A DNA stretch of 61,344 nucleotides, from positions 1 through 61,344 of IMG/VR virus record IMGVR_UViG_3300033153_010600. One strand, given 5' to 3'. Positions 1,415-6,658 of the stretch are shown one piece after another (the stretch's first letter is position 1; every line of letters begins with the position of its first letter). Under the pieces are notes generated by a model. It had not been told where the DNA came from. It did not search any database and saw only the letters and a program-made list of their open reading frames with translations. The DNA is from a virus (Duplodnaviria; Caudoviricetes). The translations under genes and the position numbers were made by a program.

Positions 1415-1810
1415 TTAGTGAGAATGCCCCAATGCCTCCTCGAATCCGCACTCGCCGGCAATTAGCCCCTTGGCCAGCTCCCGGTAGGGCCTCAGGCTCC
1501 GCCGGCAGTTGCGGCGGACGTGGGCCCTTGTCTCCGGCCCGGCAAATCGGGCCAGCGGCTTGTCCTGCCGGGCACAGTTGCACGCCCGGCACGCCGTGAT
1601 CAGGTTGTCCGCGTCGTTCGACCCGCCGTCGGCCCTGCATCGCACGTGATCGAGCGTGATGTCCTTCGGGTCCGCGTCCGAGAGGTCGCGGAGACAATAG
1701 ACGCACGTGAACCGGTCACGGAGGTAGATAGCCAACCGCTTGTCCGCGCGAATCCACCGGCCGGTCGGCTGGTGTTGCGAGCGGGCCTTCTTGGCGGTCG
1801 TGCAGGTCAT
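1415..1810 (-). CDS. HNH endonuclease
   Basis: RDRFTCVYC...TLDHV...GGSN...NLITACRACN HNH motif; start taken at MTCTT. Confidence 0.85.
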   Translation of the reverse strand: MTCTTAKKARSQHQPTGRWIRADKRLAIYLRDRFTCVYCLRDLSDADPKDITLDHVRCRADGGSNDADNLITACRACNCARQDKPLARFAGPETRAHVRRNCRRSLRPYRELAKGLIAGECGFEEALGHSH

Positions 1811-1920
1811 CGTCTTGCTCCCGAGGTTCGTGTTGGCTTGTTGTTTTCTCATTTCGGTAGGGGGATAGTGCAATCAGCGTACCAAATAGCGTCATGGGGA
1901 GAAAAAAGTATAGTCCAGCC

Positions 1921-2174
1921 CGTAAGTCGTTGTAACACAAGGGGTTACGCCTATCTGCCGCGCCCGCCCAGAAACCTCTCCATGCCCTAAGTGTATACCT
2001 GTTTGGTACACCTACGTAGCGGGGGTACTGGCGTAAACCGTTGCGAGACAAGGGGTTACGTTGCCGCAGGGGGTGTATACCTGCTTGGTACGCCTGCATG
2101 GGGGGGGAGCAACGTAAACCGTTGTAGGATAAGGAGTTATGCGGCCACCCGGGTGTATACCTATTTAGTACACC
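1921..2174. repeat. Three imperfect ~80-bp units made of two alternating motifs
   Basis: CGTAARYCGTTG..AYAAGGRGTTAYG at 1921, 2032, 2113 and GTGTATACCT..TTRGTACRCC at 1991, 2073, 2153. Confidence 0.8.
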
Positions 2175-2415
2175 GGGTCCGCATGGGCCGGTCGAGCAGC
2201 CACGGGTGCAAGCCGTGGATCATCGTCTCCGGCGTAGTCCCCAGCACCCGGGCTATCCGGGCCAACACCACGAGCGTAGGGATCCGGTCGCCGGCCTCGT
2301 AGCGTACCCAGCAGGGCCGCGGTATCCCCGCTAGCCGAGCCGCCTCCCGCTTGCTTATGCCGAGATCAAGCCGTCTCGCGGCGATGCGGGCCGCCAGGGA
2401 GTCTGTATGGGACAT
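2161..2415 (-). CDS. XRE-family HTH regulator
   Basis: RRLDLGISKREAARLAGI...RYEAGDRIPTLVVLARIARVLG is a typical Cro/C1 HTH. Confidence 0.85.
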   Translation of the reverse strand: MSHTDSLAARIAARRLDLGISKREAARLAGIPRPCWVRYEAGDRIPTLVVLARIARVLGTTPETMIHGLHPWLLDRPMRTRCTK

Positions 2416-2470
2416 CGGCGAATCCTCCGGCCGGTGAAACCGCAAACGGCATGCCGAACCGGGGCCTAGC

Positions 2471-2534
2471 ACTTTCTGGGGGAAGGGTCGGCTGAGCCGA
2501 CCCTTACCTACTATCCGGGGGGGGCTCTTGCGAC
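2471..2534 (+). repeat. Dispersed palindromic element, copy 1 of 3
   Basis: GGGGGAAGGGTCGGCTGAGCCGACCCTT.CCTACTATCCGGGGGGGG; also at 26667-26733 (+) and 44540-44614 (-). Confidence 0.85.
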
Positions 2535-2764
2535 TCGCAACACACTTCGGAGCACGTCTCGCTACTCATCTCGTCGTCTCGCAACACACTTCTCAGCACG
2601 TCATCTATCTCCGCCACGACCCCGCCCGGCGAATTGGCCGCGAATTTGATCTGGTCGCGTACTCGTCGCAGTTTGTCGCGGATGACATCCGCGTCGCTCG
2701 CCCTCACCCATTCGCCGTGCGGATCTTCCCTCAATTTGCCTTGCCGCAAGCGGTATCGTTTCAT
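2504..2764 (-). CDS. Hypothetical phage protein
   Basis: ATG ORF in a co-directional run; the C-terminal part contains two repeat handles (2534-2548, 2578-2596). Confidence 0.55.
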   Translation of the reverse strand: MKRYRLRQGKLREDPHGEWVRASDADVIRDKLRRVRDQIKFAANSPGGVVAEIDDVLRSVLRDDEMSSETCSEVCCESQEPPPDSR

Positions 2765-2810
2765 TCGTCGTGCTCCCTGCCTAAGGCGGTTCAGACCAGG
2801 ACGCTACTCA

Positions 2811-3029
2811 TTATACAGGTAGTGTCCTAGTCTGGACTACAACGGCATCGCGCTGCACCAGCTCGATCGCCGTCACCCAAGCGTCCTCCAGCCCGTCGCA
2901 GTATTCCGCAATGTATTCGGCCACCGCCACCGGACTCGACGTAGGCGTGACGACATATTCCCACTGGTTGTCGGACCAGTCGATCAGGCGATACCGCCAC
3001 AGGACGCCCTCGTGCTTGTCGCTGGCCAT
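2811..3029 (-). CDS. Hypothetical protein
   Basis: 72-aa ATG ORF directly after the portal stop. Confidence 0.55.
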   Translation of the reverse strand: MASDKHEGVLWRYRLIDWSDNQWEYVVTPTSSPVAVAEYIAEYCDGLEDAWVTAIELVQRDAVVVQTRTLPV

Positions 3030-3044
3030 TTCGCCCCCACCCGG

Positions 3045-6000
3045 CTAGAACGCGGCTGTAATGGTGCACCGGCAGTTGCTTATGCCGATGTCCTGTGCTA
3101 TAATGAGCCCGGTCACACTCTGGAGGTCATACACATGGTCCGCAAACTCGTAATACCGAACCTCGACGACTTGATCCAACAGTACATTGCCGGGAAATCG
3201 CTCAAGCAACTCAGCGACGAGTCTGGCTACAGCCGCCCCGTCCTGCTTCGTCGCCTCCGGGAACGCAACATCCAAATTAGAGGCCGATCCGAAGCAGAGA
3301 CCCTGAAATGGAGCCGACTCAAGACAGACCGCGCTGCCGTCGTTCGCCAATGCGGAGCTGCCTGGCACGCTACCGCCGCCAAAAGCAAACCCGCCCCTGG
3401 CGTGTTGTGTAGCTACAGGCATCGTGCCGACGCCGCCGTTACTAAATACAAACGGCAATCCCAAGTTTACCCCTTCGAGAACGTCTTCGCTGATATCTTG
3501 CGAGCCAACGGGTTCGCCGTTGAACAGCAATGGCCCGTCGGGCCTTACAACCTCGACATCGCCGTGGCAGAATCGCTCGTCGCCGTGGAAGTCGAGCGAA
3601 AAAATGCCCACACGTTCAACGCACCAACGACTGGACATCTCTGCTCGGGACCGCAACGCCTCGAATACTTGCTCGATGGCGGCTGGACGGTGATATTCAT
3701 TATCGCCGTTTATAGGCATGGCAAACGGATTATCGACCCGTCCTTGGTATCCAATGATCTGATCGCCCTTGTCAAGTTGGCCTGCGGGGACGAATCCCTC
3801 CGTGGTAAGTACGGTGTGTTGTGGGGTGACGGACAGCCGCCTGCCGCTTCGCGTTATCACTTCGCAGGCCGGCCCTTCATACCAGGCTTTGGTCCCGGCG
3901 ACAAATCGGCCTTGGACTAGCTGCCCCGGCAAGATGCAGTTGCATCGTTGCCCCGGCTCCAACGAGTGGTGTCCAGGGTACGGCACCCTCTGCCCACCAA
4001 GCTGAAACAGCCCGTCCGGCGAATCCGGCCCCGGCGCTACCACGCCGTGCAAGGCCAGGTGCTCTGGCCGCGTGTACTGGTCGGCCGTCGCGGACCACCG
4101 GCGACCCTTGATGAGACCCTGACGAATCAGCTCGTCCTGTTGGTGAAAATGCCCCCCATTCAACACGCCCGTCGTCTCCGTACGGGCGATGTTCGCCGAC
4201 CGGACCACCGTTGTTGTCGAGCCCAGCACGCCGTCCGTCACGCCCGGCACCGTCGGGCTGTCCCCGATGCGGACGATCAGCTCGTATTCGCTCTCGCCGG
4301 CCGCGATCCCCTCGCTCATCGTCTTGACCAGCTTGCCCCGCGTCGTCGCGTTGATATGCGGGCTGAAGTTCTGCGTCAGGATCGTTTCGAGATCCGCCCG
4401 CATCGCCGCCTGGACCTCCGGCGAAAGATCGGACATCTCTATCATTTGTTTCGATCGGCGCGGCGAAAGCTCCCGCAGGGCCCCGTCTACCATTATCGCC
4501 TCGCACGTCGGCCGGACGGCCTCTATCAGCCGCTCGTCCCAGTCGACCCGATCGAACACCTCGGCCGCCACGGCCTCGCCCGACAGCCCCTCGACGCCGC
4601 CGGCCGCCGCCAGCCGGCGGAACCGCTCCTGCACGTCCTCGCGCTGGGCCAAGAAGAAGTCGAGCATCACGGCCTGTAGCTGCCGCTCGTGATGCTTGTG
4701 GGCCTTGGCCCACGCCGATGTCTCAGGCGAGGCCGTCAGGGACTTTCGGCCGTTTTTTTTTGCGTCCTTCTGCGGCTCGACGGGCATAAGCACCTGCGTC
4801 GGGGGCGCCGCCATCGTCTCCCCGTCCATGATCGGCCCCAGCCCCAGCATCCCGGCCCGCAGCTCGTTGCGGCTGACGCTCTGATGCTTCGCCGCCAGCT
4901 CCCAGTCCTTCCGCCGCTCTTCCCGGTCGTCCGGCGTGTACGGCTCGATCCACATCGCCAGCTTCTGGTTGCGGCCCGCGAACCGGGGAGCGAATTTCTT
5001 GGTCAGCACTTTGCTGATCAGATCCATGTTGGGATTTAGGGTGAACTCCCCAAAATGGCGACGAGATTCTGCCGACGCCGCCCGGCTCGACGGCTCGGCC
5101 TTGCCCATCACGTAGGGATTCGCGCCAATCCCCTGCGTGATCCGCTCATAGGTAATTTGCCCCGAGTCGGGGAAGTCCATCTCCTCGACGCTGTTCGACA
5201 GCTTCTTCACGTCCCGGATCAGGGCGTCCAGCACAAGCGGCGACCCGGCCCTTGCGGCCGTGGCCCACTTCTGGGCGATCGCCGTCTCGACCAGCAGCCG
5301 CTGCTCCGATTTCAGCAGCGGCATGCCGTCCTCCTCGCCATCCTCGTCCGCCGGGTCGCCGACAAGGAACGCCCAGCGTGGGAACACGCCGTTGGAGAAC
5401 AGTGCCTCCTGGCACATCTGGATCTGCTCGTCCGTGCGAATGGCCCGCCCCTGGGCCTGGGCCGCCGATTTCGCCCCCAGCAGGTTCGCCGGGTCCGGAC
5501 GGTGAACCATGATTATTTCGTCGGCAGCCGCGTCAACCGACGTGATCCCGCCGCCGGGAAACACCTTCCATCCAGAGAACGGGCCCTTCTCGTGGTTCGG
5601 CACAACCCACGACGTTGGCAGCGGCCACAAGACATGGCCATTCGTTGCCCTGCGGGTGGCGGACTTGGTGTGCCACCAGTAGGTGATCCCCGTGACGATC
5701 AGGTTGACGATCGTCAGGTACTTGAGGTGCCAGTCCGTCATCACCGGATTGGGGTCTTCGATCAGGTCGAGAGCCAAGTGCGTCTCGTGGATGTCGAGGT
5801 CGGGAGCCGTCGCCTTGAGAGACTTCGGCAGCAACACTTCCCGGCCGTCGTGCGTCTCGCCCCAGAACGCGGTGGTCATGCCCTCGACAGGGCGGATGGA
5901 GCGGATGGATCTGCCGCCGGCCCTGGAGCCCGGCCTCCGCACCGTGGCAACCCGGACCGCCTGCCCCGCCACCGTGTCGGCGATCGGGCGGATGGCGGCG

Positions 6001-6191
6001 TAGAGGATGCCGCGGAACCGAAGATAGTCGTCCTCGGCCCCCATGTCTCTGGCCACGGTCGGCACCAAGGGCCCCAGGGCCACGCCTCCCTCGGCGAGCC
6101 CGGCGTCGGCAACGGCGCGGAATTGAGCTACGCGGGCGCGGCTCTGGGCCCTGAGCCTGGTGGCACGTTCGGCGGCGGCGATAGCGGTCAT
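3045..6191 (-). CDS. Portal protein fused to MuF (gpF-like head morphogenesis) domain, with an intein
   Basis: Portal-like N-terminus (LIEDPNP, LWPLPTSWV, IIMVHRPDP, FSNGVFP); MuF motifs IARTETT, RRWSATADQYTRPEH, PYPG; RCN/CRC split by an intein. Confidence 0.88.
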   Translation of the reverse strand: MTAIAAAERATRLRAQSRARVAQFRAVADAGLAEGGVALGPLVPTVARDMGAEDDYLRFRGILYAAIRPIADTVAGQAVRVATVRRPGSRAGGRSIRSIRPVEGMTTAFWGETHDGREVLLPKSLKATAPDLDIHETHLALDLIEDPNPVMTDWHLKYLTIVNLIVTGITYWWHTKSATRRATNGHVLWPLPTSWVVPNHEKGPFSGWKVFPGGGITSVDAAADEIIMVHRPDPANLLGAKSAAQAQGRAIRTDEQIQMCQEALFSNGVFPRWAFLVGDPADEDGEEDGMPLLKSEQRLLVETAIAQKWATAARAGSPLVLDALIRDVKKLSNSVEEMDFPDSGQITYERITQGIGANPYVMGKAEPSSRAASAESRRHFGEFTLNPNMDLISKVLTKKFAPRFAGRNQKLAMWIEPYTPDDREERRKDWELAAKHQSVSRNELRAGMLGLGPIMDGETMAAPPTQVLMPVEPQKDAKKNGRKSLTASPETSAWAKAHKHHERQLQAVMLDFFLAQREDVQERFRRLAAAGGVEGLSGEAVAAEVFDRVDWDERLIEAVRPTCEAIMVDGALRELSPRRSKQMIEMSDLSPEVQAAMRADLETILTQNFSPHINATTRGKLVKTMSEGIAAGESEYELIVRIGDSPTVPGVTDGVLGSTTTVVRSANIARTETTGVLNGGHFHQQDELIRQGLIKGRRWSATADQYTRPEHLALHGVVAPGPDSPDGLFQLGGQRVPYPGHHSLEPGQRCNCILPGQLVQGRFVAGTKAWYEGPACEVITRSGRRLSVTPQHTVLTTEGFVPAGQLDKGDQIIGYQGRVDNPFAMPINGDNEYHRPAAIEQVFEALRSRAEMSSRWCVERVGIFSLDFHGDERFCHGDVEVVRPDGPLLFNGEPVGSQDISEDVLEGVNLGLPFVFSNGGVGTMPVATQHARGGFAFGGGSVPGSSALANDGSAVCLESAPFQGLCFGSASNLDVAFPEATKQDGAAVARLVAELLERFPGNVLLDQVVEVRYYEFADHVYDLQSVTGLIIAQDIGISNCRCTITAAF
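3076..3126 (+). promoter_or_regulatory. Sigma70-type promoter and RBS of the nested antisense gene
   Basis: TTGCTT (3076-81), 17 bp, TATAAT (3099-3104) preceded by TG; GGAGG 3122-26; ATG 3135. Confidence 0.75.
3135..3920 (+). CDS. HTH + DUF559/Vsr-like endonuclease, antisense inside the intein
   Basis: 261-aa ORF; HTH YIAGKSLKQLSDESGYSRPVLLRRL; nuclease-like EQQWPVGPYNLDIAVAESLVAVEVE...LLDGGWTVIFI. Confidence 0.8.
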   Translation: MVRKLVIPNLDDLIQQYIAGKSLKQLSDESGYSRPVLLRRLRERNIQIRGRSEAETLKWSRLKTDRAAVVRQCGAAWHATAAKSKPAPGVLCSYRHRADAAVTKYKRQSQVYPFENVFADILRANGFAVEQQWPVGPYNLDIAVAESLVAVEVERKNAHTFNAPTTGHLCSGPQRLEYLLDGGWTVIFIIAVYRHGKRIIDPSLVSNDLIALVKLACGDESLRGKYGVLWGDGQPPAASRYHFAGRPFIPGFGPGDKSALD

Positions 6192-6658
6192 GCGCGTCTC
6201 CTTGGTTGGGCCACCATTCCCCCGATCGCCTCACAGGCGTTCAATACCGCCGTGTGGGCCGCAAACATGGCCATGGTGTGCTCGTGCGCCGCCTGGAACG
6301 CCTCGACCTCGGCCGTCCTGGCCGCCACCTGGGCCTCCGCCTCGGCCAGCGCCTCCCGCAGCCGGCGGATCTCGACCGCCGCGTCCTCCTCGGCCAGCGC
6401 CAGCCGCCCGGCCACGCCGGCCAGGCGGCTTCGCACCACTTTCAGCTCGGCCCGCAGGCGTCGCTCCTCGGCGGACGACCGGCAGCGGCCCAGCCGCCGC
6501 ACGACCCGCCGGAGCAGCCTGGCCAGGCCGCCCCACAGCCATCCCCGCGCAATCCACGGGGCTCGCCACGCGGCCGCCCAGCACCGGCCCGCCAGCCTTG
6601 CTAGCCCGGTCCACAGGCGCCATAAAATTTCCTCGACGGTCCGAACAGTTCGCCACAT
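6188..6658 (-). CDS. Hypothetical coiled-coil protein
   Basis: Overlaps the portal start; C-terminal heptad-like segment; start uncertain (MWRTV). Confidence 0.5.
   Translation of the reverse strand: MWRTVRTVEEILWRLWTGLARLAGRCWAAAWRAPWIARGWLWGGLARLLRRVVRRLGRCRSSAEERRLRAELKVVRSRLAGVAGRLALAEEDAAVEIRRLREALAEAEAQVAARTAEVEAFQAAHEHTMAMFAAHTAVLNACEAIGGMVAQPRRRA

Follow-up and report, generated by a model that had tools for sequence, protein, structure and literature searches.

A Vsr/DUF559-like nuclease gene nested antisense within a contiguous intein of a phage portal–MuF fusion gene

The EDxHD family of Vsr-like homing endonucleases was reportedly first described by Dassa et al. in 2009. Both Vsr and the homing endonuclease I-Bth0305I use a histidine as general base (H213 in I-Bth0305I; Taylor et al. 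2011, PMC3239194). The main text of Gosselin, Arsenault and Gogarten (2025; bioRxiv 10.1101/2025.01.02.630785) describes 63 non-canonical inteins in PhagesDB actinobacteriophages, among them inteins with VSR-like and LAGLIDADG endonucleases on the antisense strand, with minor capsid proteins among the carriers. According to that text, the VSR-like type is linked to 3R3P by HHpred, the antisense open reading frames (ORFs) typically lie outside the splicing blocks, and the proposed origin is an invasion of inteins by free-standing endonuclease genes; Gorbalenya 1998 and Gogarten et al. 2002 are cited there for earlier antisense LAGLIDADG cases in inteins, and Dassa 2009 for VSR-like genes located between split-intein halves. 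Here we analyze an intein in the portal–MuF fusion gene of a tailed virus (Caudoviricetes), IMG/VR record IMGVR_UViG_3300033153_010600, of which the whole stretch of 61,344 nucleotides is referred to as the window. The initial annotation of this DNA had proposed a complete homing gene nested antisense within the intein, and had implied a novelty that was too high: antisense homing endonucleases in inteins are already in print (Gosselin et al. 2025), and the window is a further example of that layout. The core of the proposal is supported, as homology, predicted fold, selection in each of the two frames and conserved signals agree on a complete nuclease gene nested antisense in the intein, and we hold with high confidence that the antisense ORF family represents a real, selected nuclease gene.

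The elements on which the argument turns are the following.

3045–6191, minus strand: portal–MuF fusion gene, 1048 amino acids, the host of the intein; a single ORF with Pfam and PHROG matches.
3075–3938, minus strand: class-1 intein, 288 amino acids (residues 752–1039), with junctions ...QRCN/CILPGQ and ...GISN/CRCT.
3750–3938, minus strand: N-terminal splicing part, intein residues 1–63, with Cys1 and block B TPQH (38–41); pLDDT (the predicted score in the local distance difference test) 95–98 and sense-frame conservation.
3075–3209, minus strand: C-terminal splicing part, the last 45 residues, with blocks F and G (...GHVYDLQS...SN); pLDDT 90–98 and sense-frame conservation.
3135–3920, plus strand: antisense gene, 261 amino acids plus stop, encoding a helix-turn-helix (HTH) domain and a Vsr/DUF559-like nuclease, the presumed homing endonuclease; based on ORF, fold, homology and selection.

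Within the 1048-residue host ORF, Pfam matches Phage_portal at residues 136–446 (E 2.1e-24) and Phage_Mu_F at residues 623–752 (E 9.2e-9; 36.5 bits, above the cut-off of 29.6), and the PHROG families are portal and head-morphogenesis. The Phage_Mu_F match breaks off at profile position 107 of 112, just where the intein is inserted and splits the C-terminal MuF motif as N-C / C-R-C; the junctions at 3075 and 3938 and the truncated match agree in placing a 288-residue intein inside the NCRC motif, where the initial annotation had put it. As expected for class-1 inteins, C1 is present, TPQH occupies residues 38–41, and the terminal Asn is followed by Cys. Across 67 intein sequences C1, H41 and N288 are invariant and T38 is near-invariant. 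The penultimate residue in the window intein and in most relatives is Ser in place of the His of the block G His-Asn pair; a penultimate His is absent from many active inteins. The Pfam family Intein_splicing scores 27.1 bits on the window intein (E 4.2e-6), under its curated cut-off of 35.8, and is the sole Pfam match in the sense frame, where no nuclease family was matched, in line with the earlier description of an intein lacking a recognizable in-frame nuclease.

The plus-strand ORF at 3135–3920 lies wholly inside the intein and runs codon for codon antisense to the host frame; because 3135 − 3045 = 90, codon position 1 of the plus strand stands opposite position 3 of the minus strand. The ORF consists of 261 codons and a stop, and both frames are free of stops across its 786 bases, which bears out the claim of a complete nested ORF with both frames open for about 790 nucleotides. 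GC content at third codon positions (GC3) is of no help in separating the frames, as sense GC1 equals antisense GC3, both being about 0.65.

A tblastn search of 50,697 phage records found relatives of the antisense ORF in 46 records, all below 60% identity; in 34 of these the match spans 80% or more of the query. The carriers are phages of Pseudomonas, Gordonia, Klebsiella, Idiomarinaceae, Vibrio, Rhodococcus, Cronobacter and Mycobacterium. In a large protein database 12 called proteins are related to it, at 36–48% identity. A pattern scan of IMG/VR matched 381 stretches, 345 of which encode a relative, and the best 80 of the 345 were kept. Altogether 84 places were examined (83 loci and the window); boundaries were set in 81 of them and yielded 69 distinct inteins, nearly all of which read N/C...SN/CRC. 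A long, codon-aligned open frame lies opposite the nuclease match in all 84 places, at a locus GC content of 0.40–0.72, and the nesting is identical in five of five loci from bacterial assemblies (titled Gemmatimonadaceae, Alcaligenaceae, Pseudomonadota, Rubellimicrobium and Halothiobacillus). The initial annotation had named loss of the antisense ORF from homologous inteins as a result that would tell against it; the ORF is kept across the relatives. Free-standing relatives of the nuclease were not found among the 84 viral places and five genome loci, in searches that reach fairly close relatives only. PHROGs hold no family for the antisense protein, and nothing near-identical to positions 2500–6500 was found in the phage collection by megablast. 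Three GenBank records were inspected (MK511015.1, MH976510.1 and JF314845.1), and in each the match lies antisense to an annotated MuF/head-morphogenesis coding sequence, which alone is listed; the antisense gene is unannotated in all three, with no gene on the matching strand.

Some members depart from the common pattern. Loci L053–L055, L077 and L050 carry the intein followed by CAYN, CGNN or CRTT and not by CRC; the sites may be MuF motifs that have diverged, or may belong to different host proteins. Longer members (L076:3716-4888, L063:3746-4801, L007:3779-4786 and L048:2253-3260) have inteins of 336–391 amino acids and antisense ORFs of up to 355 amino acids, with extra central segments.

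First, we evaluated which frame is under selection, a per-frame check that the initial annotation had called for. The 69 inteins were aligned twice, by sense and by antisense protein, and each codon column was scored in both frames; the outcome was the same either way:

First 63 codons (63 columns): amino acid identity 0.457 in sense, 0.278 in antisense; columns favouring sense/antisense 49/14.
Centre (164 columns): amino acid identity 0.239 in sense, 0.340 in antisense; columns favouring sense/antisense 40/120.
Last 45 codons (45 columns): amino acid identity 0.450 in sense, 0.343 in antisense; columns favouring sense/antisense 31/14.

The difference in identity between frames in the centre is significant (Wilcoxon 4e-14), and the most variable base is the sense third position at both ends and, in the centre, the base that comes first in the sense codon and third in the antisense codon. 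Columns opposite antisense Arg, Glu, Asp, Asn or Ala residues kept in 64–68 of the 69 sequences illustrate the pattern: sense A47/T12/S9 faces Arg in 68, sense F37/L32 faces Glu in 68, sense Ile/Val faces Asp in 68 and Asn in 67, and sense G24/S19/R18/C6 faces Ala in 67. As a guard against shared ancestry, 20 non-overlapping nearest pairs with 55–85% DNA identity were compared. In the centre 680 codon changes are synonymous only in the antisense frame and 238 only in the sense frame, the antisense-only count being higher in 19 of the 20 pairs, lower in none and tied in one. At the splicing ends the balance is reversed, with antisense-only and sense-only counts of 121 vs 287 at the N end and 87 vs 202 at the C end. 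As judged by these codon comparisons, the frame under purifying selection is the antisense one in the centre of the intein and the sense one at either splicing end, and the antisense ORF is a conserved protein-coding gene.

The same data bear on whether the ORF could be an accidental shadow frame opposite a GC-rich intein, with homologs that mirror sense conservation. Considered by itself, the open antisense frame in the window is unremarkable: merely 2 of the 773 extein codons are TTA, CTA or TCA, which read as stops on the aligned antisense frame, and the chance of staying open over 281 codons is consequently about 0.40. Two features behave as a shadow frame would: close to the C-terminus of the ORF the antisense G-x-Y-G-V reflects block B of the sense frame, and over the ORF's tail conservation is higher in sense. 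The non-randomness of the ORF comes from the relatives and not from the window copy. The antisense frame is without an internal stop in 66 of the 69 distinct inteins, against 6.8 expected from extein codon usage, and these include loci at 40–50% GC; for low-GC members the chance of an open antisense frame is 1e-9 to 1e-3. The centre columns and the independent pairs place selection on the antisense frame, the antisense product is confidently Vsr-like in its predicted fold, and Pfam nuclease and HTH families, which were built from unrelated free-standing proteins, match the antisense translation in 37–38 of 64 members, while nuclease families match none of the 67 sense translations. Taken together, these observations make a shadow frame extremely improbable. 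The three exceptions to openness, L060, L074 and L077 (L060:3513-4487, L074:3938-4759 and L077:3941-4768), carry one or two antisense stops in an antisense gene that is otherwise well kept, with the sense frame intact; they look like recently inactivated homing genes, which would fit the usual decay phase of homing elements. The antisense reading of L060 also has a duplicated HTH module.

Second, we analyzed the predicted structure of the antisense product, which has two recognizable domains:

3138–3275, plus strand: HTH domain, residues 2–47; structural match and HTH_58/HTH_7.
3459–3800, plus strand: nuclease domain, residues 109–222; structural matches to Vsr, 3r3p and 3hrl, and a profile match.

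The AlphaFold2 (AF2) model, computed from an alignment of 13 sequences, has a mean pLDDT of 83, with 91–98 in the core. Foldseek against the PDB gave no match at E ≤0.001, and its best domain-level rows, I-Bth0305I, Vsr and 3hrl, stand at E >0.01. Aligned by VIA-align with 48,161 chains, the model has nuclease matches that cover residues 109–254: Vsr (1cw0) with Z 9.4, a root-mean-square deviation (rmsd) of 3.5 and 118 residues aligned; the homing endonuclease I-Bth0305I (3r3p) with Z 8.6, rmsd 3.0 and 93 of 98 residues, over residues 112–218; and the DUF559 protein NGO0050 (3hrl) with Z 8.6 and rmsd 2.1. Residues 2–47 match the HTH domains of Tn3 resolvase, Hin and Tc3 (Z 5.7–6.8). By way of the motif E...Q.P.G.Y..D...VE...R..YL, a sequence profile matches 3hrl at E 1.7e-4; no match to 3r3p was obtained with sequence profiles. 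When the 64 antisense members were searched singly against Pfam at E ≤0.01, HTH_58 was found in 38, REase_MTES_1575 in 37, the resolvase HTH family HTH_7 in 19 and DUF559 in 17; in the control set of 67 sense translations, 65 match Intein_splicing at the same threshold and none matches any nuclease family. The near-invariant residues of the nuclease are E115, Q132, Y138, N139, D141, A150, E152, R175 and W184, and E115, D141, E152 and R175 are kept in at least 90% of members. These results support, at the level of a model, a product that folds as a resolvase-type HTH domain joined to a Vsr/DUF559-like nuclease. Profile searches of both strands and the fold thus concur with the HTH and DUF559-like assignment made initially, and the want of nuclease similarity that had been named as its possible downfall was not encountered.

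Third, we looked at the start of the antisense gene, where the candidate expression signals fall within codons of intein blocks F and G:

3076–3104, plus strand: promoter-like TTGCTT-17-TATAAT (TTGCTT at 3076–3081, TATAAT at 3099–3104), in the codons of the last ten intein residues.
3122–3137, plus strand: GGAGG (3122–3126) and ATG (3135–3137), reverse complements of the D-L-Q codons and of the His codon of block F.

All elements of the initial description, TTGCTT-17-TATAAT and GGAGG, are present inside the intein, their coordinates shifted by one base. A TG-n at 3096–3098 precedes TATAAT and allows an extended −10 reading. In the family, the start codon stands opposite the block F His (G-H-V-Y-D-L-Q) in 58 of 69 inteins (ATG in 48, GTG in 10); CAT is used for that His in 48 of 58, where extein usage would give 22. 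CTC, whose opposite-strand reading is GGAG, encodes the Leu of D-L-Q in 49 of 53 (15.7 expected), and GGAG or GAGG occurs 4–15 bases before the start in 46 of 69, against 15.0 ± 3.0 (maximum 25) in 200 synonymous resamplings. Box counts at fixed offset were made on the 61 inteins that have the His precisely 20 codons before their end; the plus-strand consensus of these reads GTTGCT..tgAcgATGCC.T.tGCTAc.ATCCA...TGGAGgTCGTAgACATG. Here TAnnnT is found in 32 of 61 (4.8 ± 2.0 under synonymous resampling) and TGnTAnnnT in 22 of 61 (0.8 ± 0.9), and TTG-(16-18)-TAnnnT occurs in 33 of all 69 (3.4 ± 1.6). Read on the other strand, the terminal Ser-Asn codons of the intein yield TTGCT. These counts support promoter-like, Shine-Dalgarno and start signals that would be kept in block F/G codons by codon choice, and we infer from them that the gene has its own promoter and hence would be expressed apart from the late operon. 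Three terminator-like sites, against 1.0 ± 1.0 in shuffles, are unremarkable. A look for sequencing runs that contain this stretch turned up no RNA run and one DNA run, with a 0.08 share of the words.

Codon usage at the penultimate Ser varies among the 69 inteins: AGC, which gives TTGCT, predominates, TCA, which gives TTTGA, is less frequent, and some inteins have TCG, AGT or TCT. The two commoner codons, AGC and TCA, place TTG where a −35 element would sit.

Finally, we examined the evidence for mobility. The gene of vB_Pae_BR313c matched 50 phage records, 14 of which hold at least 80% of the query; among the matches listed, at least 20 come as two pieces that span 852 bases at about 95–97% identity, and 852 bases is the length of the vB_Pae_BR313c gene minus its 807-base intein. 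In the one allele checked, that of Pseudomonas phage phi297 (GNSIN/CKCSQ), the intein is precisely absent, and the DNA flanking the insertion point is 96.0% identical to the intein-bearing allele in the N-extein and 100% identical over 135 bases of C-extein. The comparison of MuF alleles with and without the intein, as proposed initially, hence succeeded for the Pseudomonas relatives, with phi297, and returned none for the window's own gene. Precise intein-less Pseudomonas alleles fit homing, which we infer from the nuclease type and from these alleles in related Pseudomonas phages.

Two near-identical Pseudomonas aeruginosa phages, L001 (MK511015.1) and L085 (phi297, HQ711984.1), differ at this locus by exactly the 807-base intein. 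The nearest N-extein mismatches lie 19–20 bases from the junction and are followed by 55 bases free of mismatches, which could mark a co-conversion tract.

Based on these observations, we consider it likely, as far as sequence comparison can tell, that the locus is a mobile class-1 intein in the MuF N-C-R-C motif with a separate antisense homing endonuclease gene in exact codon register. An extended −10 type promoter of its own would drive transcription of the nuclease gene, and the Shine-Dalgarno element and ATG would serve its translation; as these signals are written into block F/G codons, expression of the gene need not follow the late operon. In relatives that co-infect or are resident, the nuclease would then cut MuF alleles lacking the intein, close to the N-C/C-R-C junction, and recombinational repair would copy the intein, together with the nuclease gene, into the cut allele. 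MuF would be kept functional by a sense frame that stays stop-free through the reversed gene; translation of the reversed stretch would give a loop of about 90 residues, for the most part disordered, together with a small folded insert, and the two HINT halves would fold together and splice out the whole insert.

Several observations weigh against this interpretation: (i) TTGCTT matches TTGACA at only three of six positions, and a consensus promoter scan called nothing in 2700–4300; (ii) the resampling of signals ignores shared ancestry, and its null, extein codon usage, may not fit a transferred intein; (iii) the Pfam scores of the window ORF lie under curated cut-offs (25.3 bits against 38.2 for MTES_1575), for which reason we do not claim formal Pfam family membership; (iv) presence or absence alone cannot tell gain by homing from precise loss; and (v) tblastn with the 204-residue N-extein of the window found nothing in the phage collection and a 354-residue extein query found nothing in IMG/VR, and because the extein is without relatives there, no intein-less allele of the window's own gene was found. 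Two further points belong to specific alternatives. The general-base His of Vsr and I-Bth0305I has no conserved counterpart in the antisense family, which lacks a conserved His column after the E152 strand, and for this reason the catalytic chemistry may differ from that of Vsr and I-Bth0305I. This would also suit a real gene whose role is not, or is no longer, homing but phage–phage competition or exclusion, or one that yields an antisense RNA regulating MuF, in an intein that is mostly inherited vertically. Most VSR-like intein groups look vertically inherited in the main text of Gosselin et al. (2025), and transcription of the gene would converge on the late operon, where antisense effects on MuF mRNA are possible. 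Set against this, the acidic residues E115, D141 and E152 as well as R175 are held in at least 90% of members, precise intein-less alleles occur among Pseudomonas phage genes that are 95–97% identical, and the gene is found only inside the intein, at one insertion site, in 84 of 84 viral places and five of five genome loci, which fits a selfish partnership. A role other than homing is in our judgment unlikely.

The second alternative concerns the window copy itself, which might be an inactive relic that has stayed open just because GC-rich codon usage rarely makes antisense stops, as the chance of about 0.40 would allow. The one tied pair in the selection analysis is that of the window and L004, with 20 vs 20 changes, and the constraint evidence is family-level and not specific to the window copy for the reason that this pair, the window's nearest, shows no antisense-synonymous excess; the record is moreover a lone metagenomic virus, 67% complete and with no close relatives. 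Yet antisense-only synonymous changes are in excess in the centre for 9 of the 10 other comparators of the window, its protein keeps the invariant and near-invariant columns, which were defined on it, along with Y17, G20, R34, R49, S52 and W59, and ATG, GGAGG and a perfect TATAAT are all retained. We regard an inactive window copy as quite unlikely.

A nested gene of this kind has consequences for the sense product, in which two regions are of interest:

3264–3521, minus strand: sense loop, residues 140–225, the poorly conserved reverse reading of the nuclease gene; low pLDDT, with a sense sum-of-pairs score of about 0 against 0.7–2.3 in antisense.
3546–3686, both strands: zone in which both frames are apparently constrained, sense residues 85–131 (a helix and D-[FL]-[HY]-G-D) opposite the catalytic strands of the nuclease; column counts and pLDDT.

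The AF2 model of the sense intein, computed with 67 sequences, is confident at both ends (pLDDT 95–98 at residues 1–65, 84–98 at 230–288), and between them assigns 81–94 to an insert of one helix plus strands at residues 81–135 and 42–53 to residues 140–225. The best structural match is the Mtu RecA mini-intein (Z 12.5, rmsd 1.4); the 105 residues that align with it roughly equal the two ends combined. Among the matches, 63 of 286 aligned chains reach Z ≥8, and the matches are mini-inteins and Hedgehog HINT domains. In the sense frame the reversed nuclease gene thus becomes a long loop, over which the HINT halves have to come together.

In the zone at 3546–3686 the predicted structures of both products are confident, with pLDDT 85–94 in sense and 91–98 in antisense, and over the insert at residues 81–135 codon positions 1 and 3 have much the same nucleotide identity. 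Some columns are sense-driven: F92 is held in 64 of 69 inteins while the antisense residue is E43/K21, G119 is held in 65 of 69 because the antisense Ala is nearly always GCC, and residue 118 is H48/Y15 because GTG or ATA is used for the antisense Val/Ile. Between about 3546 and 3686 true dual coding is probable, with the qualification that the confident sense fold at 81–135 may echo antisense covariation in the alignment. As a tentative extension, which we rate as somewhat less likely than not, the two strands may have co-evolved, such that about 47 codons (3546–3686) encode two folded, selected segments, with codons chosen to suit both frames (antisense Ala as GCC in 65 of 69, giving sense Gly; antisense Val/Ile as GTG or ATA, giving sense His or Tyr), and the block F/G residues Ser-Asn, Ile-Val/Ile, Asp-Leu-Gln and His, including the penultimate Ser, are held partly because their codons spell the −35, −10, Shine-Dalgarno and start elements. 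If true, this would be a compact case of bidirectional coding with embedded regulatory signals.

As for the surroundings of the intein, portal and MuF are fused likewise in several relatives (about 1090–1400 amino acids, e.g. L004, L029, L033 and L051), and others have MuF alone. Two small ORFs without a family (2504–2764 and 2811–3029) directly follow the MuF gene. About 1.2 kb downstream of it, on the same strand, lies a gene for an HNH endonuclease of 152 amino acids (1415–1873, minus strand; Pfam HNH 1.4e-9, above cut-off), a second nuclease gene close to the packaging and head genes, and between this and the MuF gene a gene for an XRE-type HTH protein (2161–2472, minus strand; HTH_31 9.3e-12).

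The wider meaning of the locus lies in what it adds to the published layout. The element is not confined to actinobacteriophages, since phages of Proteobacteria have it at the same MuF site, as do hundreds of contigs from uncultured viruses. Direct evidence is added that selection switches strand within the intein, and the start, the ribosome-binding site and a promoter-like element of the nuclease gene appear to be written into conserved intein codons and kept by synonymous choice. Antisense expression and homing drive are now testable in cultured carriers, for example phages of Gordonia or Pseudomonas. The main text of Gosselin et al. (2025) contains neither "promoter" nor "Pseudomonas", and "purifying" once, in speculation; its supplements may hold more. 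Per-frame selection and signals in blocks F and G are seemingly not treated in that main text, from which the spread beyond actinobacteriophages, the strand switch of selection, the embedded signals, the overlap with splicing blocks and the possible dual-coded zone appear to be absent.

In comparison with known systems, the window intein most resembles those of Gosselin et al. (2025) in being contiguous and unsplit, in having an antisense endonuclease ORF and a minor capsid host, and in its VSR-like fold resembling 3R3P; their proposed origin, a free-standing endonuclease gene that invaded an intein, would also fit here. It differs from their set, which as described in the main text comprises PhagesDB actinobacteriophages only, in that the family also occurs in phages of Pseudomonas, Klebsiella, Cronobacter, Vibrio and Idiomarinaceae, in 345 IMG/VR stretches and in five bacterial assemblies, and in that the window ORF has its start and signals in blocks F/G and extends with roughly its last 60 codons into the N-terminal splicing part. 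The antisense LAGLIDADG inteins (Gorbalenya 1998; Gogarten 2002, as cited in bioRxiv 10.1101/2025.01.02.630785) are alike in having the endonuclease on the opposite strand and different in nuclease family and host genes. With I-Bth0305I and the EDxHD family, as described in PMC3239194, the antisense product shares an N-terminal HTH-type region, a C-terminal Vsr-like catalytic domain and a link to self-splicing elements in phage genes. I-Bth0305I itself belongs to a group I intron and its relatives lie between split-intein halves or are free, in contrast to an antisense gene inside a contiguous intein; and whereas E115, D141 and E152 are conserved in the present family, H213 of I-Bth0305I is without a conserved counterpart. 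Within the PD-(D/E)xK nucleases, the fold and the core motif agree with the DUF559/REase_MTES_1575/Vsr branch, whose proteins, unlike the antisense product, are free-standing and cellular and are without its N-terminal HTH domain and helical linker.

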